From assembly GCF_050920415.1 (NCBI RefSeq), contig NZ_CP169309.1: a stretch of 64,000 bases of DNA. One strand, 5' to 3'. The stretch comes from Escherichia coli. Its GTDB lineage: Bacteria; Pseudomonadota; Gammaproteobacteria; Enterobacterales; Enterobacteriaceae. Positions 4,972-42,092 of this stretch are shown here, in pieces (position 1 is the first letter of the stretch; the number at the start of each line of letters is the position of its first letter). Below the pieces are notes generated by a model. It did no database searches, was not told the DNA's origin, and saw only the letters and a program-made list of their open reading frames with translations. A program made the translations under genes and the position numbers.

Positions 4972-6405
4972 ATGAAAGTAACGCTGCCAGAGTTTGAACG
5001 TGCAGGAGTGATGGTGGTTGGTGATGTGATGCTGGATCGTTACTGGTACGGTCCCACCAGCCGTATCTCGCCGGAAGCGCCGGTGCCCGTGGTTAAAGTG
5101 AATACCATCGAAGAACGTCCGGGCGGCGCGGCTAACGTGGCGATGAATATCGCTTCTCTCGGTGCTAATGCACGCCTGGTCGGGTTGACGGGCATTGACG
5201 ATGCGGCGCGCGCGCTGAGTAAATCTCTGGCCGACGTCAACGTCAAATGCGACTTCGTTTCTGTACCGACGCATCCGACCATCACCAAATTACGGGTACT
5301 TTCCCGCAACCAACAGCTGATCCGTCTGGATTTTGAAGAAGGTTTCGAAGGGGTTGATCCGCAGCCGCTGCACGAGCGGATTAATCAGGCGCTGAGTTCG
5401 ATTGGCGCGCTGGTGCTCTCTGACTACGCGAAAGGTGCGCTGGCAAGCGTGCAGCAGATGATCCAACTGGCGCGTAAAGCGGGCGTTCCGGTGCTGATTG
5501 ATCCAAAAGGCACCGATTTTGAGCGCTACCGCGGCGCTACGCTGTTAACGCCGAATCTCTCGGAATTTGAAGCTGTTGTCGGTAAATGTAAGACCGAAGA
5601 AGAGATTGTTGAGCGCGGAATGAAACTGATTGCCGATTACGAATTCTCGGCTCTGTTGGTGACCCGTTCCGAACAAGGGATGTCGCTGCTGCAACCGGGT
5701 AAAGAGCCGCTGCATATGCCAACCCAGGCGCAGGAAGTGTATGACGTCACCGGTGCGGGCGATACGGTGATTGGTGTGCTGGCAGCAACGCTGGCGGCGG
5801 GTAATTCGCTGGAAGAAGCCTGCTTCTTTGCCAACGCGGCGGCCGGTGTGGTGGTTGGCAAACTGGGAACATCCACGGTTTCGCCGATCGAGCTGGAAAA
5901 TGCAGTACGTGGACGTGCAGATACCGGCTTTGGTGTGATGACCGAAGAGGAACTGAAGCTTGCTGTAGCGGCGGCGCGTAAACGCGGTGAAAAAGTGGTG
6001 ATGACCAATGGCGTCTTCGACATCCTGCACGCCGGGCACGTCTCCTATCTGGCAAATGCCCGCAAACTGGGTGACCGCCTGATTGTCGCTGTGAACAGCG
6101 ATGCCTCCACCAAACGGCTGAAAGGGGATTCCCGCCCCGTTAACCCTCTCGAACAGCGTATGATTGTGCTGGGGGCACTGGAAGCGGTCGACTGGGTGGT
6201 GTCGTTTGAAGAAGACACGCCGCAGCGCTTGATCGCCGGGATCTTGCCAGACCTGCTGGTGAAAGGCGGCGACTATAAACCAGAAGAGATTGCCGGGAGT
6301 AAAGAAGTCTGGGCCAACGGTGGCGAAGTGCTGGTGCTCAACTTCGAAGACGGTTGCTCAACCACTAACATTATCAAGAAGATCCAGCAGGATAAAAAAG
6401 GCTAA
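4972..6405 (+). CDS. hldE: Bifunctional D-glycero-beta-D-manno-heptose-7-phosphate kinase / heptose-1-phosphate adenylyltransferase
   Basis: 477-aa ORF; N-terminal ribokinase-like and C-terminal cytidylyltransferase-like halves; RBS AGGAGACAGG. Confidence 0.95.
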
Positions 6406-6485
6406 CCGGAAAGCGGTTCACAGTTCTCGCGTTGTGCCGGATAGTCCTATTGACGCTGTTGTTTTTTCAACCTAAAGTAAAGGAA

Positions 6486-6627
6486 CAAGGGTAAGGGAGG
6501 ATTTCTCCCCCCTCTGAATGGCCGTTAATAAGCGTGGAAACTTATCAGTAACAGCACAATCAGTATGATGACGAACTTCATCATAACCCTTTCCTTATAC
6601 AAGGCCCCTTCTTCGGGAGGGGCTTTC
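6486..6627 (+). ncRNA. sib: Sib-type antisense sRNA (antitoxin of ibs), copy 1
   Basis: Promoter TTGACG-17 bp-TAAAGT at about 6450-6478; fully overlaps the ibs ORF on the opposite strand; terminator hairpin GCCCCTtcttcgggAGGGGC followed by TTT at about 6604-6626. Confidence 0.55.
6525..6584 (-). CDS. ibs: Ibs-family small hydrophobic toxin (19 aa, MMKFVIILIVLLLISFHAY)
   Basis: 19-codon ORF on minus strand, translated by hand; too short for the ORF track; matches the Ibs toxin pattern MMK-hydrophobic-SF-AY. Confidence 0.7.
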   Translation of the reverse strand: MMKFVIILIVLLLISFHAY

Positions 6628-6861
6628 CCGTTTCAGCCCCTTGCTGATTCCCCGATTGTTGATGAGCGCCAGACCCCGCGCAATGCTTTCCCTGATGCAC
6701 TTTTCTCTTCCCCGAGTCGGCTCGCAAAACGCTGTAACAACCTGATCATTTGTACTTTTTAGCGGAACGCAGATATAAAAAATCCCCGGCTTTTTGGGCC
6801 AGGGATATGTGTTAATGAAACCTTCTTGACGCTGATTTTTTTTCAACCTAAAGTAAAGGAA

Positions 6862-7003
6862 CAAGGGTAAGGGAGGATTTCTCCCCCCTCTGAATTGGTT
6901 GTTAGTAAGTCGGGAAACTTAACAGTAACAACACAATCAGTATGATGACGAACTTCATCATAACCCTTTCCTTATACAAGGCCCCTTCCTCGGGAGGGGC
7001 TTT
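6862..7003 (+). ncRNA. sib: Sib-type antisense sRNA (antitoxin of ibs), copy 2
   Basis: Promoter TTGACG-17 bp-TAAAGT at about 6826-6854; terminator GCCCCTtcctcgggAGGGGC followed by TTT at about 6981-7003. Confidence 0.55.
6902..6961 (-). CDS. ibs: Ibs-family small hydrophobic toxin (19 aa, MMKFVIILIVLLLLSFPTY)
   Basis: 19-codon minus-strand ORF in the second repeat unit, translated by hand. Confidence 0.7.
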   Translation of the reverse strand: MMKFVIILIVLLLLSFPTY

Positions 7004-7199: not shown

Positions 7200-8861
7200 T
7201 TATTCTATGTTTTCTGCTACGGGAGTTGTTGAGGTTAAGGGTGAAGTCAATGCCGCTAGCGAGCCGCCTGAAACACCAATTTCATTGAGCAAGGAGTCAA
7301 TCAGCGGTGCCTGTGTGCGGTAAGAAAGCGCGGCTGATAACGCTTGTTCCGCCAGATTTCCTCCACCAACGCTACCTGATATTGCATCCCCTGCGGTACC
7401 ACCACGGTTCAGACCATCGACCTGAATAATCTTAATACCGTCGATAGACTTCATTGGTTCCACAGATTTCTCAATTACCGCAGGGAGCGCCTGCAACAAT
7501 GCCAGCTTGAATTTAAGGCTGGTTTGCTCGTCAGAAAGTACGTTGATAGCATCGTTCAGCGCACGTTGCGCTTCTGCTTCCGCCAGGCCTTTTTTACGCG
7601 TAGCTTCGGCTAACTCAACGATCGCCGCCGCCTGCATCTCTGCGGCTTCTTTCTCTGCTTTCGCCCGCACGGTCAGTTCAACCGCTTTGGTTTCTGCATC
7701 CTGCGCGGCAGCGATTAGGGCAACTTGTTTAGCACGATCGGCTTCTGCGGTCTGGCGAGTGGTTTCTACGTTTTGCTGGGCGCTTACCGCTTCTGCAAGT
7801 GCAAGGTTGGCACGCGCTTCCGTTTGTGACTGCTGTTCCGATTTGGCGGCAATAGCGATCGATTTCGTCTGGTTGGCGATTTCGGTGACCTGCTGCTGTT
7901 CGATCTCTTTAATGCGAACTTCACGTTCAGCTTCAACTTTTCTGGAACGGACGGCCTGTTCGCGGTCGATTTCCGTTTCCTGAATCTGTCGTTCAGCCAG
8001 AATTCGCGTCTGCTCTGCTTCCCGACGACGCTCGGCCTCAAAAGCCGCAATTTTCGCATTCTGCTCAGCGGTACGGGTTTTAACCTGCTGCTCCTGCTCA
8101 AGCGTCATAAACGCTTCTTGCTGTTCAATCTCCAGCTTCCGCGAAAGCGCATCACGGTTTTTCTCACGCACCGCAACTTCTACATCCTGTTCAACTTCGT
8201 TACGTTCGCGACGACGGCGCTCCGTCTCCTGCGTCAGCTTGGTTAAACCTTCGGCGTCAAAGGCGTTGTTAGGATTGAAATGTTCTTTCGACGTCTGGTT
8301 AAAGTTGGTAAGTGAAACGCTTTCCAGTTCCAGGCCGTTTTTCGACAGATCTTCAGCAACGGTATTTTGTACGCCCTGCACGAAGTTCTCGCGGGTATCC
8401 TGTAACTCATGCATGGTCATTTGTGCAGCTGTTGCACGGAGGGCATCGACAAATTTATCTTCAACCAACATACGTAAGTCTTCAGGCGACAGGGTGCGTT
8501 GCCCCAGCGTCTGGGCGGCGGTGGCAATACCTTCCACTGACGGTTTTACCCGCACAAAGAAAGCGACAACGACATCGACGCGCATACGATCTTTCGTAAT
8601 CAGGCTATCAATGGTTGAGCGGCTGACTTCCAGCTTCAGAGTATTCATATTGATGGGGATTATTTCATGAAAGATCGGCATCACGATTGCGCCACCGCTC
8701 ATTACCACTTTTTGCCCACCTAAACCAGTACGAACAAAAGCTTGCTCTGCCGAAGCGCGACGATAGAGCCTGGCGAAAATAATTCCAATAATTAACAGAA
8801 TGCATACGGCAATAATTGCGGTAAACATCCAGGAGGGCACAGAATTAACAATATCATCCAT
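7200..8861 (-). CDS. yqiK: SPFH / band 7 (flotillin-like) membrane protein with long coiled-coil region
   Basis: 553-aa ORF; N-terminal TM helix, SPFH-like region, Ala/Glu/Gln-rich coiled coil; downstream partner of yqiJ. Confidence 0.9.
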   Translation of the reverse strand: MDDIVNSVPSWMFTAIIAVCILLIIGIIFARLYRRASAEQAFVRTGLGGQKVVMSGGAIVMPIFHEIIPINMNTLKLEVSRSTIDSLITKDRMRVDVVVAFFVRVKPSVEGIATAAQTLGQRTLSPEDLRMLVEDKFVDALRATAAQMTMHELQDTRENFVQGVQNTVAEDLSKNGLELESVSLTNFNQTSKEHFNPNNAFDAEGLTKLTQETERRRRERNEVEQDVEVAVREKNRDALSRKLEIEQQEAFMTLEQEQQVKTRTAEQNAKIAAFEAERRREAEQTRILAERQIQETEIDREQAVRSRKVEAEREVRIKEIEQQQVTEIANQTKSIAIAAKSEQQSQTEARANLALAEAVSAQQNVETTRQTAEADRAKQVALIAAAQDAETKAVELTVRAKAEKEAAEMQAAAIVELAEATRKKGLAEAEAQRALNDAINVLSDEQTSLKFKLALLQALPAVIEKSVEPMKSIDGIKIIQVDGLNRGGTAGDAISGSVGGGNLAEQALSAALSYRTQAPLIDSLLNEIGVSGGSLAALTSPLTSTTPVAENIE

Positions 8862-8887: not shown

Positions 8888-9517
8888 TTACAGTATTTGG
8901 GGCCAGGGATTTTTTTCCGCCAAATATCGCGTTGCAGAAAGTCGGCAAATAATTAATACTTTGTCTCCTTTAGTGAAAGTTTTTTCTTCTTCAGGTTCCA
9001 GTAGTAAATAATGTATTTGGCCAAATTGATCGGTGAGTTTTCCTTCACAGGGGTTACCTGAAGTGGCCTGATGTCCGGTAATTAATGCCATGCAGCCAAT
9101 ATAATCGTCTTCTGTAATAGCAGTGCTATGATCTCGTGGTAACCAGGGCGCAATTCCTTTACCGGTATAATGCACTGCAATAATCGTTAGCAGTAAACTG
9201 ACAGGAACCACAAACAGATTTGTGAGTGGTGATTGCCAGACCATGATGCAGACCTGCTGTAGCAGGATGCCAATAAGGCCAAAAAAACCAGCATGTAAGC
9301 AGAGAACGACGAGAGCTGGCAATCTTCCAAAATTGAGATAATGAAGTGCCTGGCTAATATGACCTGTGGTTATGGAATCATAATGGTCAAGATGTGCATC
9401 AAGAGCACCGGAAAGCATGTGACCGCAGATAAGTGCAAAAATTTCTAAAAGGCCGATCAAAAGTACAAAAGAAATAGCGAAAAGATAAGGGGTGTTATAG
9501 TCAGCGAATAAACTCAT
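8888..9517 (-). CDS. yqiJ: NfeD-like inner membrane protein
   Basis: 209-aa ORF with multiple hydrophobic helices and C-terminal OB-like part; immediately upstream of yqiK. Confidence 0.85.
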
Positions 9518-9786
9518 ATGTCACTCCAATGTCCATTTAGTGACGCAATATTTATTTTGCGATAATTTCCTTGCTTACATTTATCTTTGTTAATAATAAC
9601 ACATGTTAGAGATGTTCTGAAAGAGAAAGTCTTTTAATGTTGTTTTTTTATTTTTCACTAAAAAGTGTGATCGGGAACAATATATTTACGCACGTTATGT
9701 TTAAAGGCACTACACTGATTGGGGAATACTGAAATCAGAAAAAGCATATGGCCTTAAAAGGTATGCGATAACCGGAGGAGGTGCTT

Positions 9787-9987
9787 ATGGATCATAGTCT
9801 TAATTCTTTAAATAATTTCGATTTCCTGGCGCGTAGTTTTGCCAGAATGCACGCAGAAGGTCGCCCGGTCGATATTCTGGCCGTTACTGGTAACATGGAT
9901 GAAGAACATAGAACCTGGTTTTGCGCACGTTATGCCTGGTATTGCCAACAAATGATGCAAACCAGAGAACTGGAATTAGAACATTGA
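9787..9987 (+). CDS. glgS: Surface composition / glycogen-associated regulator GlgS
   Basis: 66 aa from [10 protein letters not shown] (track ORF has 2 extra codons); RBS GGAGGAGG upstream. Confidence 0.9.
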
Positions 9988-10021: not shown

Positions 10022-10321
10022 TTATTCTGCTTTATCAACCGGCGGGATAGCCGGAGGAGATTGAAGATCTGCTACCGAATTATTGCGCGCTTCCAGTTCA
10101 CTGATGCGCTGCTCCAGTAATGCCAGTTTCTCACGAGTCCGTAACAGGACTTGCGTCTGTACGTCGAATTCTTCGCGGCTCACCAGATCGAGACGCGTCA
10201 ACTGCGCTTGTAGGGTTTGGCGGATTTTTTTCTCCACATCTTCCCCGAACTCCCTGATTCCTTTAGGCATTGATTCGTGAACCTGGCGAGCGATTTGCTC
10301 AATTTTTTTCGGGTCAATCAT
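10022..10321 (-). CDS. ubiK: Ubiquinone biosynthesis accessory factor UbiK (YqiC), coiled-coil
   Basis: About 99 aa from [14 protein letters not shown] (track ORF has a 20-codon extension); BMFP-type coiled-coil. Confidence 0.8.
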
Positions 10322-10440
10322 TGTAGTTTCCCTGTACTGATAGGTGTTGAGTGCCATTGTAGTGCGATAAGGGTAAGTCATAAACCAGAATTATGTGAAG
10401 CTATGCGTTGCTGCCGCTAATCATTAGCGTTATAGTGAAT

Positions 10441-35389: not shown

Positions 35390-36802
35390 ATGTCACTCAG
35401 TCGGCGTCAGTTCATTCAGGCATCGGGGATTGCACTTTGTGCAGGCGCTGTTCCCCTGAAGGCCAGCGCAGCCGGGCAACAGCAACCGCTACCCGTTCCG
35501 CCGCTGCTTGAATCTCGCCGTGGGCAACCGCTGTTTATGACTGTACAACGTGCGCACTGGTCATTTACGCCAGGGACACGCGCATCGGTCTGGGGAATCA
35601 ATGGTCGTTACCTGGGGCCGACTATCCGCGTCTGGAAGGGCGATGATGTTAAGCTGATCTACAGTAACCGCCTGACAGAAAATGTCTCAATGACGGTGTC
35701 TGGTTTACAGGTGCCTGGCCCGCTGATGGGCGGTCCGGCACGGATGATGTCGCCAAACGCTGACTGGGCACCCGTATTACCCATTCGCCAGAACGCAGCG
35801 ACATTGTGGTATCACGCTAATACCCCCAATCGCACGGCTCAGCAGGTCTATAATGGCCTTGCCGGAATGTGGCTGGTGGAAGATGAAGTCAGCAAGTCGC
35901 TGCCTATCCCAAACCATTATGGTGTGGATGATTTTCCGGTCATTATCCAGGATAAACGGCTGGATAACTTTGGTACGCCAGAATACAACGAACCGGGAAG
36001 CGGCGGCTTTGTTGGAGATACGCTGCTGGTCAACGGTGTACAAAGCCCGTACGTTGAAGTCTCGCGTGGCTGGGTGCGCTTGCGTCTGTTGAACGCGTCG
36101 AACTCTCGTCGCTATCAACTACAGATGAGCGATGGTCGCCCGTTACATGTGATTTCTGGCGATCAGGGATTCTTGCCTGCTCCTGTATCGGTGAAGCAAC
36201 TTTCGCTGGCACCGGGCGAGCGCCGCGAGATTCTGGTGGATATGAGCAACGGTGATGAAGTGTCGATCACCTGTGGTGAAGCGGCGAGCATTGTAGATCG
36301 TATTCGTGGCTTCTTTGAGCCATCCAGCATTCTGGTTTCTACGCTGGTGCTAACGCTGCGCCCGACCGGCCTTCTGCCGCTGGTCACAGACAGTCTTCCG
36401 ATGCGCTTGCTGCCAACTGAAATCATGGCCGGTTCGCCGATTCGCAGTCGCGATATCAGTCTGGGTGATGACCCAGGTATTAATGGACAACTGTGGGACG
36501 TCAACCGTATTGATGTCACCGCGCAGCAAGGAACGTGGGAACGCTGGACGGTACGCGCGGACGAGCCGCAAGCGTTCCATATTGAAGGCGTGATGTTCCA
36601 GATCCGTAACGTGAATGGCGCGATGCCATTCCCGGAAGACAGAGGCTGGAAAGATACCGTTTGGGTTGACGGACAAGTGGAGCTGCTTGTTTATTTCGGT
36701 CAGCCTTCCTGGGCGCACTTCCCGTTCTACTTCAACAGTCAGACGCTGGAAATGGCGGACCGTGGCTCGATAGGGCAACTGTTGGTCAATCCGGTACCGT
36801 AA
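35390..36802 (+). CDS. ftsP: Cell division protein FtsP (SufI), multicopper-oxidase-like Tat substrate
   Basis: 470-aa ORF; twin-arginine signal SRRQFIQASGIALCAGA. Confidence 0.9.
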   Translation: MSLSRRQFIQASGIALCAGAVPLKASAAGQQQPLPVPPLLESRRGQPLFMTVQRAHWSFTPGTRASVWGINGRYLGPTIRVWKGDDVKLIYSNRLTENVSMTVSGLQVPGPLMGGPARMMSPNADWAPVLPIRQNAATLWYHANTPNRTAQQVYNGLAGMWLVEDEVSKSLPIPNHYGVDDFPVIIQDKRLDNFGTPEYNEPGSGGFVGDTLLVNGVQSPYVEVSRGWVRLRLLNASNSRRYQLQMSDGRPLHVISGDQGFLPAPVSVKQLSLAPGERREILVDMSNGDEVSITCGEAASIVDRIRGFFEPSSILVSTLVLTLRPTGLLPLVTDSLPMRLLPTEIMAGSPIRSRDISLGDDPGINGQLWDVNRIDVTAQQGTWERWTVRADEPQAFHIEGVMFQIRNVNGAMPFPEDRGWKDTVWVDGQVELLVYFGQPSWAHFPFYFNSQTLEMADRGSIGQLLVNPVP

Positions 36803-36852
36803 TGGACCAATTCAATGCCCCACAGAGTGGTGGGGCGATACAAGGATGAATC

Positions 36853-38277
36853 ATGGATGGCATGGGATGGATGATTATTTTGGTACTTCCCTTTCTTTGG
36901 ATGGGCTATGGACTGGCGTTGTTAATCATAACGGGGTGCGCTTTTGAATCTAAGAGGATTCGTCGCATTCTGCTATGGGGTGTTGCGCCCCAGTTTATTA
37001 TTCTTTGTATTACGACCTTATTGCTTTATTGGATTAACTCTCGGTTAATTTATGTTTTTGTCTTTTTTCAGCCAGTTTTATGCATCACTACGGCAATTTT
37101 TTTGTTTGCTGGTAAAAAAACACAATATTCCAGATTGCTGTTTACTCTGTCTCATGTGATTTTTCTTGCTGGAGTTTTATATCAGGGGCATAGGGAAAAT
37201 CTGCAACACATAATTAATAGCGACTGGAAGGAATATAAAATAACGCGTTTATTTGAGCAAGTGCAGGACAATGGAGCGCATGCGCTGAATAACGATGTAA
37301 CTTGTTCAGAATTAATGCAACTACTCACCCTGGCAGCGGAACGTGATGACGTCAAAGAAGAGACGTTACGTACTCTTATTGCAAAGAGAGTATCGCCATT
37401 TCTGACAATGTCAGATAACTGTACGGGTGAGGATTCAGTAGAGATTTATTCTGTAGATACTACACCTTTTATGGCGGCTATTCAGAATCATAATATACAT
37501 TCTGTTCGTTTTTTTAGTCAATTGCTTATGGGAAACTCACCAAAAGCAAAAAATAATCGTGACATTGTGCGCCGGGCAAACCCTTTGATCGAAGTGTATA
37601 AATATAGTCATGGTTCAAAAAAACAACGTAACTCAGGGTTAGAAATAAGTAAGCAATTAATGGCTATTATGCCAGAACTATTAACAGATGCCGTCTGGCG
37701 TGCCGTGCTCAATGTATATGATGCCGATGCAGCACGATGGTTCTGGCGTAAGCAACCACCAGAAAATCGGTTGTATCGCTTAAAGGCTATGGCATTAATA
37801 CCACAAACAGATGCGCTGTTGGCAGAGATTCGACATACTCCAGAGGTACTGAATATCTCGTCTGAGGGGGACCTGAATGAAGAGGAGTTTCTCCATTTCT
37901 TAATTTATGGAGGAGATACCGCTGTAATACATGCACTGGTTGAAAAAGGAATAGTTAACTGGCAGCACCTTATGAACATTGAGGGGTTTGATAAGGACCC
38001 CTTAATATGGTCTATTTCAAAACTGGGAGAAAACGACAATGACCGGGAGGTTTTGGCATTAATTATTCATGATATTAATGCGCAAAACGCACTGCCGGAG
38101 GAACGCATTGCCAAATATTTAACGTGGACGGGAGCAATGGGCGAGATTTTTTTAAAGGCGGGCGTACATTGTGATAAGTTATATGCGGCAATTGAGTCCG
38201 ACAAAAAGCGAAATAATGGCATGTATAGTCAAAACGCCAGGGAAGAAGTGGATCGCGTATGTACGCCCACAAAATAG
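36853..38277 (+). CDS. Hypothetical polytopic membrane protein with C-terminal ankyrin-like repeats (accessory)
   Basis: 474-aa ORF; N-terminal ~110 aa with 3-4 hydrophobic helices; downstream motifs resembling ankyrin repeats (TPFMAAIQNHNIHSVRFFSQLL; DKDPLIWSISKLGENDNDREVLALIIHDINAQN); visibly AT-rich. Confidence 0.6.
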   Translation: MDGMGWMIILVLPFLWMGYGLALLIITGCAFESKRIRRILLWGVAPQFIILCITTLLLYWINSRLIYVFVFFQPVLCITTAIFLFAGKKTQYSRLLFTLSHVIFLAGVLYQGHRENLQHIINSDWKEYKITRLFEQVQDNGAHALNNDVTCSELMQLLTLAAERDDVKEETLRTLIAKRVSPFLTMSDNCTGEDSVEIYSVDTTPFMAAIQNHNIHSVRFFSQLLMGNSPKAKNNRDIVRRANPLIEVYKYSHGSKKQRNSGLEISKQLMAIMPELLTDAVWRAVLNVYDADAARWFWRKQPPENRLYRLKAMALIPQTDALLAEIRHTPEVLNISSEGDLNEEEFLHFLIYGGDTAVIHALVEKGIVNWQHLMNIEGFDKDPLIWSISKLGENDNDREVLALIIHDINAQNALPEERIAKYLTWTGAMGEIFLKAGVHCDKLYAAIESDKKRNNGMYSQNAREEVDRVCTPTK

Positions 38278-38295
38278 GAGCAGTTTGGGGCGGTT

Positions 38296-39213
38296 AAGGG
38301 ATAAAAAATAAATGCCTTTCGCTATCTGTCAGGGCGAATCTCACCATTTGCTATACCTTCCATTGGCGATGAACAGTATTCTACACGCACTTTTTTTACG
38401 ATTGCGTTGAAGCATTACAACGCCCGCGCCATCCGCGCGTTTAGCCGCTTTCTGCAAGGAAATTCCTCAAAAGCGTAGGAATATCGCGCGATTGTTCATC
38501 AAAAAAATCCACTGCAGCAGATGTACCGGGGAATAAGTTTGCCAATTCGTTTTAGTGAAGAAGAGATCGCCCGCCACATTGTTGCCGCTCGCGAGATAAG
38601 CCTCACCTTGCTGCCCCTGATGCCAGAATTATTAAACGAAGAGGCGTATGAAAATGTCATTGATGCTAATGACAGCGCAACGCTGAAGGCTTTTTGGCAG
38701 ATCCAGCTGCCGCCCACGCCGGTTTTACGCCTGGAAACGATGTCGGTAATTCCCATGACAGCGGCACTGGTTCAACAGGTGAGGGAGTCACCAAAGCGGC
38801 TTGAACTGGAAGATAAAAGTGGCAGGACAGTACTAACTTACATCGTGCGCTTTGGGAATATTGCCGCAGTACAGGCACTGATTGACGCTAATCTGATCGA
38901 CTGGCAACGGCTCCGCCAATCGACAGGAAGGTCAACACCATTATTACTGGCGATCTGGCGACAAAAATACGACGATGATTATGTAATCTTCCCATTGATT
39001 TTAAAGGACATGCTGGCAAAAAATGCGCCACCCTCAGCAGAGGAAATAATGAACTGCATTAAGGATGGTATGACCGCAGATGATTTTTTATCTGCCGGAA
39101 TGAGCAACACGCAATTCTGTTCTGCGATTGAACAAAGCCTCCAGGCGAAAACGTCAGTATTACCGGCGAATCGATTACGCCATCTGCAATCCTCGCGGTG
39201 TGCAAAGCTGTAA
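38296..39213 (+). pseudogene. 5'-truncated, amber-interrupted paralogue of the upstream ankyrin-like gene
   Basis: Track ORF 38521..39213 (230 aa) aligns to the C-terminal half of the 474-aa protein; the same frame upstream reads ...TRTFFTIALKHYNARAIRAFSRFLQGNSSKA-TAG(38476..38478)-EYRAIVHQKNPLQQ-M..., matching TPFMAAIQNHNIHSVRFFSQLLMGNSPKAKNNRDIVRRANPL of the full-length gene. Confidence 0.5.
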
Positions 39214-39328
39214 CCAACCGGAAGTTAAGTCATCCGCTGAAAACATCGCATTAACTTTTCGATTTCTCTTTCGTTCCGGCTTATAATCCCCGGCCTTTGA
39301 TTATTTTTTTATCATTTCTGGAAGCAAA

Positions 39329-41548
39329 ATGAGCTCTATCTCCCTGATCCAACCGGATCGCGACCTGTTCTCCTGGCCGCAGTACTGGGCCGCCTGTTTT
39401 GGACCGGCACCGTTTTTGCCGATGTCTCGTGAAGAGATGGATCAACTTGGCTGGGATAGCTGCGACATCATTTTGGTTACTGGCGACGCGTATGTCGATC
39501 ACCCAAGCTTCGGGATGGCGATTTGCGGTCGTATGCTGGAAGCGCAGGGCTTCCGTGTCGGGATCATCGCCCAGCCAGACTGGAGCAGCAAAGACGACTT
39601 TATGCGTCTGGGTAAACCGAATCTGTTTTTCGGTGTTACTGCTGGCAACATGGACTCGATGATCAACCGCTATACTGCCGATCGCCGTTTACGTCATGAC
39701 GATGCCTACACGCCGGATAACGTTGCGGGTAAGCGCCCGGATCGCGCCACACTGGTTTACACCCAACGTTGTAAAGAGGCGTGGAAAGATGTGCCGGTGA
39801 TCCTCGGCGGTATTGAGGCTAGTTTGCGTCGTACCGCGCATTATGATTACTGGTCTGATACCGTGCGCCGTTCCGTGCTGGTGGATTCCAAAGCCGACAT
39901 GCTGATGTTCGGTAACGGTGAGCGTCCGCTGGTGGAAGTGGCGCATCGTCTGGCGATGGGTGAGCCGATTAGTGAAATCCGCGATGTGCGTAATACTGCG
40001 ATTATCGTAAAAGAGGCGTTGCCAGGCTGGAGCGGCGTGGATTCCACCCGTCTCGATACCCCAGGGAAAATCGACCCGATCCCGCATCCGTATGGCGAAG
40101 ATCTGCCGTGCGCGGATAACAAACCTGTTGCGCCGAAAAAGCAGGAAGCGAAAGCCGTAACCGTGCAGCCGCCGCGCCCGAAACCGTGGGAAAAAACCTA
40201 CGTATTGCTGCCTTCTTTCGAGAAAGTGAAGGGCGATAAAGTGCTGTACGCCCATGCTTCGCGCATTCTGCACCACGAAACCAACCCTGGCTGCGCCCGC
40301 GCATTGATGCAAAAACACGGCGACCGCTATGTGTGGATCAACCCGCCTGCTATCCCGCTTTCTACCGAAGAGATGGACAGCGTCTTTGCGCTGCCGTACA
40401 AGCGCGTGCCGCATCCGGCTTACGGTAATGCCCGAATTCCGGCTTACGAAATGATCCGTTTCTCGGTCAACATTATGCGTGGCTGCTTTGGCGGCTGCTC
40501 TTTCTGCTCTATTACCGAGCATGAAGGTCGCATTATTCAGAGCCGTTCGGAAGATTCGATCATCAACGAGATTGAAGCGATCCGCGACACCGTGCCAGGC
40601 TTTACGGGCGTGATTTCCGATCTCGGTGGGCCAACTGCCAACATGTATATGTTGCGCTGCAAATCGCCGCGCGCCGAGCAGACTTGCCGCCGTTTATCGT
40701 GCGTTTACCCGGATATTTGTCCTCATATGGACACTAACCACGAACCGACGATCAACCTCTATCGCCGCGCGCGTGATCTGAAAGGCATTAAAAAGATCCT
40801 CATCGCTTCCGGCGTGCGTTATGATATCGCCGTGGAAGATCCGCGCTATATCAAAGAGCTGGCGACCCATCACGTTGGCGGTTATCTGAAGATTGCCCCG
40901 GAACATACCGAAGAAGGGCCGTTATCGAAGATGATGAAGCCGGGCATGGGCAGCTATGACCGCTTTAAAGAGCTGTTCGATACTTACTCGAAACAGGCAG
41001 GTAAAGAGCAATATCTGATCCCGTATTTCATCTCCGCACACCCGGGTACGCGTGATGAAGATATGGTGAATCTGGCGCTGTGGCTGAAAAAGCATCGCTT
41101 CCGTCTCGACCAGGTACAGAACTTCTACCCGTCGCCGTTGGCTAACTCCACCACCATGTATTACACCGGGAAAAACCCGCTGGCGAAGATTGGTTACAAG
41201 AGTGAAGACGTCTTCGTACCGAAGGGCGACAAACAGCGTCGTTTGCATAAAGCGTTGTTGCGTTACCACGATCCGGCAAACTGGCCGTTAATCCGTCAGG
41301 CGCTGGAAGCGATGGGTAAAAAGCATCTGATTGGCAGCCGTCGTGATTGCTTAGTGCCTGCGCCAACCATTGAAGAGATGCGCGAAGCCCGCCGTCAGAA
41401 CCGCAATACCCGTCCGGCGTTGACTAAACATACGCCGATGGCGACCCAGCGTCAGACACCTGCTACGGCAAAAAAAGCGTCGTCTACGCCATCTCGCCCG
41501 GTGAATGCTGGCGCGAAGAAACGCCCTAAAGCGGTGGCAGGTCGTTAA
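39329..41548 (+). CDS. ygiQ: Radical SAM protein YgiQ (UPF0313)
   Basis: 739-aa ORF; CxxxCxxC-type radical SAM cluster region ([10 protein letters not shown]). Confidence 0.9.
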
Positions 41549-41586: not shown

Positions 41587-41817
41587 TTATAACCTTGGTT
41601 TATAAGGACTGTTACGAACGTCTAAGCGGTAATGCGCTCTTGCTGTTTCGTCTTTAACTTGCTGAATTTCCGGACGCAGGGCGTCAATATCCTGTTGCAG
41701 TTGATTAATTTTGTTATTCAATGCCTGAATATCATGTTCCAGGTGTTCAATTTTGGCATTGCTGGTACAGCCAGCAAGACACAGCGCCAGCGGAATGGAT
41801 AAGATAAGTTTGTTCAT
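41587..41817 (-). CDS. Lpp-like small lipoprotein (Braun lipoprotein paralogue)
   Basis: About 76 aa from MNKLILSIPLALCLAGC (lipobox LAGC); mature part CTSNAKIEHLEHDIQALNNKINQLQQDIDALRPEIQQVKDETARAHYRLD resembles Lpp heptad repeats. Confidence 0.6.
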   Translation of the reverse strand: MNKLILSIPLALCLAGCTSNAKIEHLEHDIQALNNKINQLQQDIDALRPEIQQVKDETARAHYRLDVRNSPYKPRL

Positions 41818-41834
41818 TATGAATTCCAGAACCG

Positions 41835-42092
41835 TCATTCCGCATACATACGTAAGCAGCGCAGGCAATCGAAATAGTCCTGGGCGTCAAGGCGCGTATT
41901 GGCTCTGTTAGCGTCGGATTTGGCAGCATAGATTTGCGGGCGTAATGCTTTCATATCCTGCTCAAGTCGGGCAATTTTGGCATTTAACGTCTGTACGTTG
42001 CTCGCCAGCTGATTGACCTTTTGCTCATTGACGCAGCCGCTGAGCAAGCAGGTTGCCAGAACAACAGCCCCCACGGTGAAAATCGTTTTCAT
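41835..42092 (-). CDS. yqhH: Lpp-like outer membrane lipoprotein
   Basis: 85-aa ORF, lipobox LSGC, Lpp-like heptad region [32 protein letters not shown]. Confidence 0.75.

Follow-up and report, generated by a model that had tools for sequence, protein, structure and literature searches.

The window, that is, the whole 64,000-nt stretch of Escherichia coli DNA analysed here, carries between ftsP and ygiQ an intact gene (gene 1) followed by the remnant of a paralogue (gene 2). We propose that gene 1 encodes an inner-membrane protein in which a four-helix module with neither end in the cytoplasm would hold an ankyrin-like alpha-solenoid of about 360 residues in the periplasm. The anatomy and the evolutionary history of the locus are described with high confidence. 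An immunity-type function, argued by analogy with known systems, is offered as a tentative proposal. Anatomy, history, orientation and function taken jointly form the best explanation that we can give, and we hold it with somewhat less than even confidence.

Locus, composition and carriers

Both open reading frames (ORFs) described in the first-pass annotation were found on the plus strand: gene 1 (474 aa) at the position given in Table 1 and a 230-aa ORF (ORF2) at 38521..39213, with all peptides quoted for them present in the translations. Megablast matches to other E. coli genomes stopped at 36836 on the left and began at 39254/39257 on the right. Junction alignments showed that in the K-12-type haplotype a spacer of ~37 nt with a different hairpin replaces the block. 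The accessory status claimed for the block was borne out: it was found in 13 of 5,426 complete E. coli genomes, each time in the chromosome and at the ftsP-ygiQ site, and ftsP and ygiQ are 110 bp apart in the laboratory strain DTU-1.

Table 1. Coordinates of the features of the ftsP-ygiQ spacer in the window.
Feature	Position	Strand	Remarks
Block relative to the K-12-type haplotype	36804..39253	.	Junction alignments
Hairpin	36816..36837	+	Stems GCCCCACA / UGGUGGGG; directly past the ftsP stop codon; RNA fold
Shine-Dalgarno-like AAGGA	36842..36846	+	7 nt upstream of the gene 1 ATG; read from the sequence
Gene 1	36853..38277	+	ORF of 474 aa, intact, between ftsP and ygiQ
Four-helix transmembrane module, residues 1-113	36853..37191	+	Hydropathy and AF2 helices; predicted N-out/C-out
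Soluble all-alpha repeat domain, residues 114-474 (~360 aa)	37192..38274	+	Predicted periplasmic
Two repeats with recognisable ankyrin signature, residues 340-411	37870..38085	+	EFLHFLIYGGDTAVIHALVEKG... / PLIWSISKLG...REVLALIIHDINAQN; Pfam Ank_2
C-terminal helical hairpin with conserved cysteine pair	38170..38262	+	Cys440 (38170-38172), Cys470 (38260-38262)
Deletion scar, 519 bp lost	38309..38310	+	5-nt AAAAT microhomology; alignment with strain GF4-3
Gene 2 remnant (pseudogene)	38310..39213	+	3' ~300 codons of the paralogue

The block had also been described as AT-richer than its flanks, and this was confirmed by both windowed and per-gene values. Windowed GC content was 0.375-0.43 in gene 1, 0.46-0.51 in ORF2 and 0.53-0.59 in ftsP and ygiQ. 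GC and GC3 were 0.408 and 0.381 for gene 1, 0.483 and 0.506 for ORF2, 0.558 and 0.586 for ftsP, and 0.550 and 0.622 for ygiQ. The AT-richness is thus strong in gene 1 and only mild in ORF2.

The hairpin between ftsP and gene 1 had a folding energy of -16.7 kcal/mol with a weak score (z -1.75). It lacks a T-tract and is therefore probably a leaky terminator or a stabiliser. The 34 nt past ftsP that include the hairpin region (36803-36836) were 100% identical to the sequence downstream of ftsP in strain JJ2434, so that the left 34 nt of the block are common to the B2-type TRAP-island haplotype. As the promoter/terminator scan found no sigma-70-like promoter between ftsP and gene 1 (the site count was not above that of shuffled sequence), we infer that gene 1 is co-transcribed with ftsP.

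Gene 2 and selection

ORF2 had been read as a decayed paralogue and tandem partial duplicate of gene 1. Decay and paralogy stood, and the partial duplication did not: alignment with strain GF4-3, whose gene 2 is intact, shows that a full-length gene of 469 aa was cut by the 519-bp deletion and additionally interrupted by a nonsense codon. The deletion took the ribosome-binding site, the start codon and codons 1 to ~167 of gene 2, that is, the whole membrane module, and an in-frame TAG stands at 38476-38478, where relatives have CAG. ORF2 lies inside the remnant and begins at an ATG with no Shine-Dalgarno sequence before it; it is part of the dead 3' end of a tandem full-length paralogue. Full-length gene 2 was intact in nine of the 13 carrier genomes and in E. 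whittamii, and dead in the remaining four carriers. Its protein shared 26% identity with that of gene 1 over 468 residues (E 1e-43); the paralogy is genuine, far beyond chance.

Estimates of dN/dS were 0.19-0.29 for gene 1, at synonymous distances of up to 0.55-0.86, and 0.20-0.23 for gene 2. The remnant compared with the intact GF4-3 copy gave 0.41, a value derived from 19 changes only. The ratio stayed below 0.5 in every region; no region exceeded 1, so that the coarse regional test gave no hint of an arms race. Compared with the flanking core genes, nonsynonymous rates of the family were higher by a factor of roughly 10-70. The dN/dS of ~0.2-0.3 marks gene 1 as a functional gene, and this low ratio, its intact state in all 13 carriers and the retention of the motifs and the cysteine pair described below together indicate long-term purifying selection.

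Membrane module and topology

The membrane anchor reported for gene 1 was recovered as four hydrophobic helices within residues 1-113 by Kyte-Doolittle hydropathy and AF2, the AF2 helices spanning residues 3-30, 34-61, 66-85 and 90-113. We summed the charged residues of the tail and loops over an alignment of 18 family members, which share ~20-37% identity apart from one close orthologue at 74%. The counts of K+R and D+E were 6 and 17 in the N-terminal tail, 44 and 3 in loop 1, 5 and 12 in loop 2, and 43 and 1 in loop 3, so that loops 1 and 3 together held 87 K/R and four D/E. On these counts, the positive-inside rule is strongly and uniformly satisfied only by an N-out/C-out arrangement. Because of these loop charges and the invariant C-terminal cysteine pair, the repeat domain is predicted to lie in the periplasm and not in the cytoplasm, an orientation that we consider probable. 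We infer both the topology and the disulfide from rules of thumb and from a predicted model, in which the membrane part has a pLDDT of 50-65.

In TM2, Pro46-Gln47 was invariant or nearly invariant in the 18 aligned members; the invariance of Arg37 in loop 1 was limited to the 11 closer relatives. The family-wide conservation of Pro46-Gln47 suggests that the module is more than a mere anchor. In a Pseudocitrobacter paralogue, the whole 4-TM module is doubled to 8 TM, which keeps the N-out/C-out topology. ORFs of 120-132 aa comprising TM segments only were seen at three homologue loci (L005, L006 and L010). Immunity proteins of pore-forming colicins have three to four TM segments in ~110-180 aa, a resemblance to the 4-TM module in size and topology only.

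Repeat domain

In the predicted model, the soluble domain is a stacked helix-turn-helix solenoid of eight to nine helix-hairpin repeats with ankyrin-like geometry, and conservation was highest at residues 201-335. The ankyrin-like repeats proposed for gene 1 were sub-threshold in Pfam, with Ank_2 at E 1.7 (residues 340-411) and 3.9. The gene 2 remnant matched Ank_2 with an i-E of 2.6e-4 (21.9 bits, ORF2 residues 90-149). When the 18 family members were searched singly against Pfam, none matched at E<=0.001 and three did at E<=0.1. The family profile searched against the PDB matched the ankyrin domains of KANK1/2/3 and designed ankyrins (E 3e-4 to 4e-3). At profile positions ~320-365 it also picked up ~90 multi-repeat proteins, with as many as 30 matches in a single protein; the one of these that was checked (P0051) was canonical Ank by Pfam. 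These matches to ankyrin proteins span only one to two repeats. Alignment of the family with a single consensus DARPin by hhalign paired the right region with a non-significant probability of 2%, and Foldseek against the PDB returned armadillo/importin matches only, all non-significant.

Taken with the model, the profile matches argue for similarity of fold to an ankyrin-type solenoid. Compared with canonical ankyrin proteins (Ank PF00023, Ank_2 PF12796; DARPins, KANK, ankyrin-1), however, most repeats have diverged too far for Pfam to recognise, repeat lengths are irregular, and the family of gene 1 has a polytopic membrane anchor and a predicted periplasmic location. The cysteine pair of the last hairpin was kept in all 16 full-length members (alignment A4), and in five of them these were the sole cysteines of the soluble domain. 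Cys440-Cys470 is probably a periplasmic disulfide, as yet a candidate, that would staple the last helical hairpin.

Family, distribution and history

Gene 1 is entered in RefSeq as a 'membrane protein' (WP_000348902.1) and in UniProt as 'uncharacterized' (A0A1Q6B411), and has orthologues at 95%, 91% and 74% identity. Foldseek matches in AFDB50 at E<=0.001 were almost all uncharacterised Enterobacterales relatives, with one eukaryotic exception, and none was an annotated homologue. The earlier statement that neither protein belongs to a characterised family agreed with our searches of NCBIfam (nothing meaningful for either protein), Pfam, PADLOC-DB v2 (no family for gene 1 or full-length gene 2) and PHROGs v4 (best match E 0.36). 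The two proteins belong to a small family that has no name and was seen in Enterobacterales alone.

Relatives occupy the ftsP-ygiQ spacer in Escherichia, Salmonella salamae, Superficieibacter, Pseudocitrobacter and one MAG. Members located away from ftsP were found in Atlantibacter, Enterobacter cancerogenus, S. enterica and the P0047 lineage. Copies in Salmonella and other genera were often split or truncated. Divergence from E. whittamii was lower in the block than in the upstream core genes (dS 0.20 versus 0.58; identity 92-95% versus 87-91%). As relatives lie in the same spacer across genera, the family seems to be a long-standing occupant of the site that has been lost many times, and not foreign DNA inserted there, with at most exchange within the genus, and we propose that most E. 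coli lost the gene pair from this spacer.

The earlier reading of a horizontally acquired insertion is accordingly too simple, given these relatives and the lack of plasmid or phage copies: tblastn found no homologue in the plasmid collection or in 50,697 phage records, and mobile-element cargo was rejected. Simple insertion into an empty site of the K-12 kind was also rejected, as the spacer of K-12 is not empty but holds an unrelated hairpin segment of 37 nt, and the left 34 nt of the block are those of the B2 TRAP-island haplotype. The unrelated TRAP-transporter island that also occupies the spacer is GR21 (PMC12928451). The ftsP-ygiQ spacer is therefore a general variable spot with multiple haplotypes.

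Proposed function and known systems

The protein of gene 1 would act in the envelope as a membrane-tethered surface that binds another protein. Because its cytoplasmic loops comprise only ~10 residues, it would be unable to signal inward by itself. The likeliest role would be to capture or neutralise a foreign protein acting in the periplasm, which would make gene 1 an 'orphan' immunity-type factor akin to Tli. The population traits of the family are immunity-like: divergent tandem paralogues, frequent pseudogenisation, patchy distribution, solitary genes without operon partners and the raised nonsynonymous rates given above. A defence or immunity role had also been suggested in the first-pass annotation and is speculative, with no PADLOC hit. 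In the ~12 contexts examined, no toxin, T6SS, CDI, colicin, phage or defence gene adjoined the family and no neighbour gene was conserved; lipase, VgrG, PAAR, Rhs and CdiA genes were absent both from these contexts and from the window. Neighbours seen in single cases were a Barstar-like gene beside the E. cancerogenus copy and a LemA/M48 pair in Pseudocitrobacter.

A more specific form of the immunity reading is that the family represents a new class of polytopic-anchored periplasmic ankyrin immunity proteins, orphan guards against T6SS lipases or hydrolases, CDI or colicin domains from competing Enterobacteriaceae, kept as a diversifying and decaying tandem array at the ftsP-ygiQ spacer. We regard this form as rather doubtful. 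Under it, the Pro-Gln-bearing 4-TM module might give added protection against membrane-inserting toxins.

The closest precedent is Tli of Enterobacter cloacae, a periplasmic, lipid-anchored protein whose six ankyrin repeats cup the incoming type VI lipase (PMC11470151; as a periplasmic ankyrin binder also bioRxiv 10.1101/2023.03.28.534661). Tli, the partner of Tle ('Tle6'; PDB 9CYS, 7UBZ), shares with the gene 1 protein, as predicted here, an all-alpha ankyrin-type solenoid at the inner membrane that faces the periplasm and acts by binding only. Unlike Tli, which is anchored by a lipoprotein signal, the gene 1 protein has four TM helices and no lipoprotein signal or lipobox. Tli is always encoded beside its lipase, whereas the family of gene 1 had no linked toxin in the contexts inspected; Tli is also shorter and has a second, cytoplasmic activating role. 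Membership in the Tli family was rejected, since neither search of the PDB with family profiles returned 9CYS or 7UBZ (E<=1 with alignment A3; E<=10 with A4).

AnkB of Pseudomonas aeruginosa is a periplasm-facing ankyrin-like protein that supports the catalase KatB by direct binding, according to the account of Howell 2000 and others given in PMC10294975. Related to it are the AnkB/CatB pair of Xanthomonas and Cj1386 of Campylobacter. AnkB is small and co-transcribed with the catalase gene, whereas no catalase gene was found next to any family member inspected, and the membrane module, the C-terminal cysteine hairpin and the ~360-aa solenoid of the gene 1 protein have no counterpart in AnkB. 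Ankyrin-type immunity proteins ('Imm-Ank') of polymorphic toxin systems were reportedly described by Zhang, Aravind and colleagues in 2012. Like the family of gene 1, these and orphan immunity arrays come as divergent paralogues in tandem that are patchily distributed, often decayed and quick to evolve. Imm-Ank proteins are, however, typically small, cytoplasmic and encoded beside toxin genes or their remnants, none of which was seen for this family.

Alternative explanations

Gene 1 might instead encode an endogenous helper or scaffold whose periplasmic domain attaches to an envelope protein of the cell itself; the obvious candidate is FtsP, the periplasmic divisome protein whose gene lies directly upstream on the same strand. 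In five spacer loci, the first family member starts 33-137 bp past ftsP on the same strand, a location that recurs in at least four genera and one MAG; the window has no promoter-like site between ftsP and gene 1, and the AnkB/KatB pair, as recounted in PMC10294975, provides a precedent. Yet >99% of E. coli have ftsP without gene 1, and the members in Atlantibacter, E. cancerogenus, S. enterica and the P0047 lineage lie far from it. In Pseudocitrobacter, two genes on the opposite strand stand between ftsP and the family genes, and the presence of an unrelated TRAP-transporter island in the same spacer makes it look like a site of general variability. We consider a helper role unlikely. Phage exclusion, with the periplasmic domain binding ejection or tape-measure proteins and blocking genome entry, or abortive infection with the 4-TM module as effector, would be compatible with an AT-rich, rare, fast-evolving, solitary membrane protein bearing a repeat sensor-like domain, and with the family-wide conservation of Pro46-Gln47 (Arg37 being conserved only among close relatives). 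The absence of matches in PADLOC, PHROGs and the 50,697 phage records, and of any prophage or defence-island context among the loci inspected, makes it a decidedly unlikely reading.

The locus could also be a relic with little or no present function, a decaying ancestral Enterobacteriaceae locus kept by chance in a few lineages or reintroduced by recombination from a sister species. Absence of the block from 5,413 of 5,426 genomes, loss of gene 2 in four of 13 carriers, the split copies elsewhere, the low GC3 and the closeness of the block to E. whittamii (dS 0.20 against 0.58) would all fit. A gene 1 intact in 13 of 13 carriers, with dN/dS at ~0.2-0.3 and with motifs and a cysteine pair conserved across genera at ~20% identity, speaks against a relic, which we judge improbable. 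Many bacterial ankyrin proteins are host-targeting effectors, and NCBIfam gave very weak matches to the Legionella AnkX/AnkG models (E 0.14-0.15); at ~10 bits against cut-offs of 500-1400, however, these are noise. A cytoplasm-facing ankyrin protein is strongly contradicted by the charge distribution. The four-helix membrane module, unexpected in a T3SS/T4SS substrate, and the carriers, which are ordinary commensal, food or animal isolates, speak against a secreted eukaryote-like host-interaction effector. Either form is very improbable.

Significance

Bacterial ankyrin proteins are mostly discussed as secreted, host-directed effectors. The periplasmic ones are few (AnkB and Tli), each with a binding-based role, and the unnamed Enterobacteriaceae family of gene 1 would join them with an architecture that is new, combining a 4-TM anchor with a predicted periplasmic ankyrin-like solenoid and a predicted disulfide-stapled tail. 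The ftsP-ygiQ spacer thereby offers a case of one family persisting across genera yet gone from >99% of E. coli. Should the immunity reading be false, gene 1 would be an ordinary accessory gene; if it is true, gut enterobacteria would possess a larger repertoire of 'orphan' protection genes.

The ftsP-ygiQ spacer

Over its whole length the window matches the chromosome of E. coli strain MFDS1022581 exactly (positions 705,961-769,960). Two ORFs on the same strand occupied the spacer between ftsP and ygiQ, exactly where the first-pass annotation had placed them. RefSeq labels gene 1 "membrane protein" and ORF2, which lies within the remnant of a tandem paralogue (gene 2), "hypothetical protein"; the identical 474-aa sequence in UniProt/AFDB is uncharacterised. 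The block had been called AT-rich, which is clearly true of gene 1 (GC 0.408, GC3 0.381, against 0.558 and 0.586 for ftsP and 0.550 and 0.622 for ygiQ) but only mildly so of ORF2 (GC 0.483, GC3 0.506). It is also accessory, as had been proposed: 13 of 5,426 complete E. coli genomes carried it, in every case on the chromosome and at this site.

The spacer is a multi-haplotype variable site, for which E. coli shows no fewer than three forms: K-12-like, TRAP-transporter island, and the present block. In strain DTU-1, the K-12-like spacer measures 110 bp and contains a hairpin of its own. The island fills the spacer in B2-type strains such as JJ2434, and this region corresponds to "GR21 ygiQ..ftsP" (PMC12928451). 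The first 34 nt after ftsP, the site of a GC-rich hairpin, are common to the block and TRAP haplotypes. At that position, K-12 has an unrelated segment of ~37 nt, so its spacer was rejected as a clean empty insertion site for the block. In an Escherichia-like contig (L006), an ORF for the membrane module only, gene 2, and the TRAP operon all lie in the spacer, a combination that points to a larger ancestral locus from which parts were lost differentially.

Coordinates of the features discussed (in the window unless a homologue locus is named)
Feature	Locus	Position	Strand	Remark
Ibs-family toxin genes	window	5189-5248; 5566-5625	-	between hldE and yqiK
Broken fimbrial operon	window	10066-12332		between ribB and zupT
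Pilus assembly pseudogene	window	10066-11016		truncated
IS2 element	window	11104-12332
ygiV-parC interval	window	31749-32085
Pseudogene fragment	window	31877-31948		72 nt
ftsP	window	35390-36802		upstream flank
Segment shared with TRAP haplotype	window	36803-36836		34 nt
GC-rich hairpin	window	36816-36837
Gene 1	window	36853-38277	+	474 aa
519-bp deletion point	window	38309/38310
CAG to TAG	window	38476-38478		in frame
ORF2	window	38521-39213	+	230 aa
ygiQ	window	39329-41548		downstream flank
Lpp-like gene	window	41587-41868	-	between ygiQ and yqhH
TM-only ORF	L005, Superficieibacter	9433-9795
TM-only ORF	L006, Escherichia-like contig	7444-7842
TM-only ORF	L010, Pseudocitrobacter	8447-8818
587-aa paralogue	L010, Pseudocitrobacter	5178-6941
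Barstar-family gene	L015, E. cancerogenus	9425-9847	-

Gene 2 as a deletion remnant

Gene 2 in the window is a pseudogene. A version of the block longer by 519 bp was found in 10 of the 13 carriers, nine of which have a full-length gene 2 (469 aa, e.g., strain GF4-3) with its own four-helix membrane module. In the window and its close relatives 2013C-4282 and WL297, these 519 bp are missing at an AAAAT microhomology of 5 nt, and gene 2 has lost its ribosome-binding site together with codons 1 to ~167. The window additionally has a CAG codon changed to TAG upstream of the ORF2 start codon, and no Shine-Dalgarno sequence precedes that ATG. In EC2641, the fourth genome without an intact gene 2, an IS1 element lies between the genes and gene 2 is split. 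Aligned from end to end, with the membrane module, gene 1 and full-length gene 2 share 26% identity (E 1e-43) and are thus old tandem paralogues. ORF2, previously taken for a tandem partial duplicate, is indeed a decayed paralogue, but one shortened by deletion from a full-length gene.

Members, spread, and history of the family

No family in Pfam, NCBIfam, PADLOC, or PHROGs covers these proteins, in line with the initial failure to recognise them. Word-indexed protein searches brought up close relatives only, from E. coli, E. whittamii, Escherichia sp., and Superficieibacter. Searching 1.84 billion representatives with an 11-sequence profile yielded ~20-25 clusters of relatives, either full-length (~460-590 aa) or fragments, the named ones being from Salmonella enterica, subsp. 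salamae, Pseudocitrobacter, Atlantibacter hermannii, and Enterobacter cancerogenus, plus ~90 very large proteins with many matches each, confined to profile positions ~320-365. Structure search added uncharacterised proteins of Phytobacter, E. albertii, Klebsiella grimontii/pasteurii, and Budvicia. Split or truncated copies were common (e.g., 130 + 310 aa pairs in Salmonella). No copies were detected by tblastn in 72,556 plasmids or 50,697 phage records.

Family members occupy the ftsP-ygiQ spacer in several genera: both genes intact in E. whittamii; a 476-aa member of the gene 1 type with a 397-aa ORF after it in contig L018; one gene and a 120-aa TM-only ORF in Superficieibacter electus; 587-, 472-, and 123-aa members in Pseudocitrobacter corydidari; one gene in Salmonella salamae; and 463- and 327-aa members in a MAG (L020). 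Outside the spacer, solitary copies with unrelated surroundings were found in Atlantibacter, E. cancerogenus, the lineage of one protein-search match (P0047), and an IS-flanked S. enterica island. Across the inspected contexts no neighbour gene was kept, and none of the genes next to a family member encoded a toxin, a secretion-system or phage component, or a catalase. The simplest reading is that the family is an old, repeatedly lost resident of this spacer in Enterobacteriaceae; a horizontally acquired insertion, as originally proposed, is therefore too simple, although the accessory status stands. Compared with E. whittamii, gene 1 of the window has diverged less (dS 0.20, 92-95% identity) than ftsP has (dS 0.58, 87-91%), although the gene 1 protein evolves much faster; this hints at exchange within Escherichia.

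The stand-alone ORFs of 120-132 aa consist of the four-helix module only, with its conserved "PQ" motif, and adjoin full-length family genes. Such ORFs may have arisen by decay or may be small membrane partners in their own right. Behind the solitary E. cancerogenus member come a gene of the Barstar family (RNase inhibitor or immunity) and a pair of small ORFs, the single context with an immunity-type neighbour.

Membrane module and repeat domain

Membrane anchoring, suggested earlier, agrees with four hydrophobic helices in residues 1-113. Charges were counted in 18 members (~20-37% mutual identity, plus one close orthologue at 74%). Lysine and arginine against aspartate and glutamate totalled 6 and 17 in the N-terminal tail, 44 and 3 in loop 1, 5 and 12 in loop 2, and 43 and 1 in loop 3. 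Under the positive-inside rule (von Heijne), positively charged loops are cytoplasmic. Loops 1 and 3 would thus be cytoplasmic and both termini outside, so that the C-terminal repeat domain of ~360 residues is predicted to face the periplasm. In the 587-aa Pseudocitrobacter paralogue, the whole module is tandem-duplicated ahead of the repeat domain (eight predicted helices, two "PQ" motifs), which preserves the topology. A cysteine pair, with one residue opening the penultimate helix (or lying a turn further on) and the other near the C-terminus, was present in 16/16 full-length members (Cys440 and Cys470 in gene 1) and accounted for the only soluble-domain cysteines in five. Retention in so divergent a family is typical of extracytoplasmic disulfides, and the pair is a candidate for one. 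Both features agree with an N-out/C-out topology. Pro46-Gln47 (TM2) is invariant or nearly so in the 18-member alignment and Arg37 (loop 1) is invariant among the 11 closer relatives only; this conservation hints at a role of the module beyond passive anchoring.

The AF2 model of gene 1 contains helices only and shows 8-9 helix hairpins (mean pLDDT 74.6; 80-93 across most of residues 130-330). A closer-relative profile matched KANK ankyrin domains and designed ankyrins (E 3e-4 to 4e-3), and one of the very large multi-match proteins (P0051) is a canonical ankyrin protein by Pfam. In Pfam, neither gene 1 (E 1.7) nor any of the 18 members tested one by one had a significant match; only the ORF2 remnant matched Ank_2 (i-E 2.6e-4). 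A match to one consensus DARPin was weak (hhalign), and armadillo-type Foldseek matches in the PDB were non-significant. We conclude that the domain is probably an ankyrin-like solenoid with two recognisable repeats (residues ~340-411), the rest being degenerate; the ankyrin resemblance noted at first is thus upheld by profiles and model, but not by Pfam for gene 1 itself.

Selection

Gene 1 had dN/dS values of 0.19-0.29 and gene 2 values of 0.20-0.23, at synonymous distances up to 0.86, compared with 0.004-0.02 for ftsP and 0.002-0.011 for ygiQ. The values for genes 1 and 2 stayed below 0.5 in every region, with the strongest constraint at residues 201-335, and thus point to genes maintained by selection yet fast-evolving. 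No coarse sign of positive selection was seen in region-level dN/dS. The gene 2 remnant had a dN/dS of 0.41 against the intact copy, from 19 changes only.

Other loci in the window

One additional gene, for an Lpp-like lipoprotein (WP_001037461.1; named "LPP leucine zipper domain-containing protein" by PGAP), was present in 18/5,426 complete E. coli genomes and in E. whittamii, together with the ankyrin block in window-type strains and elsewhere without it. Between ygiV and parC, where K-12 has mqsR-mqsA-ygiS, the sole annotation is a pseudogene fragment; the strain appears to lack ygiS and the mqsR-mqsA toxin-antitoxin pair. Upstream of parC, E. whittamii and L006 retain an SBP_bac_5 gene resembling ygiS. 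The truncated pilus assembly gene of the broken fimbrial operon adjoins an IS2 element, and RefSeq annotates two tandem Ibs-family type I toxin genes.

Proposed function

With cytoplasmic loops of ~10 residues, the gene 1 protein would have no means of cytoplasmic output, and its action would be limited to membrane and periplasm, where it may serve as a tethered binding surface. Two periplasmic ankyrin binders offer precedents. Tli of E. cloacae, lipid-anchored and with six ankyrin repeats, wraps and neutralises an incoming T6SS lipase (PMC11470151; bioRxiv 10.1101/2023.03.28.534661); AnkB of P. aeruginosa is reported to support the catalase KatB (cited in PMC10294975). Unlike Tli, gene 1 has no lipobox, and homology between its family and Tli was not detectable.

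Family members might be immunity-type or "orphan guard" factors. We rank this role first, since the family's population traits (divergent paralogues in tandem, many pseudogenes, a patchy distribution, genes standing alone, and rapid change at the protein level) fit it better than a housekeeping helper. Our confidence is low, given the two differences from Tli and the lack of a linked toxin or sign of positive selection. A rival reading is that the protein helps an envelope protein of the cell itself; FtsP is a possible partner, as gene 1 tightly adjoins ftsP on the same strand. Phage exclusion and a nearly functionless relic are further rivals. Gene 1 represents a new architecture among bacterial periplasmic ankyrin-type binders, of moderate-to-low interest unless the immunity-type role holds.
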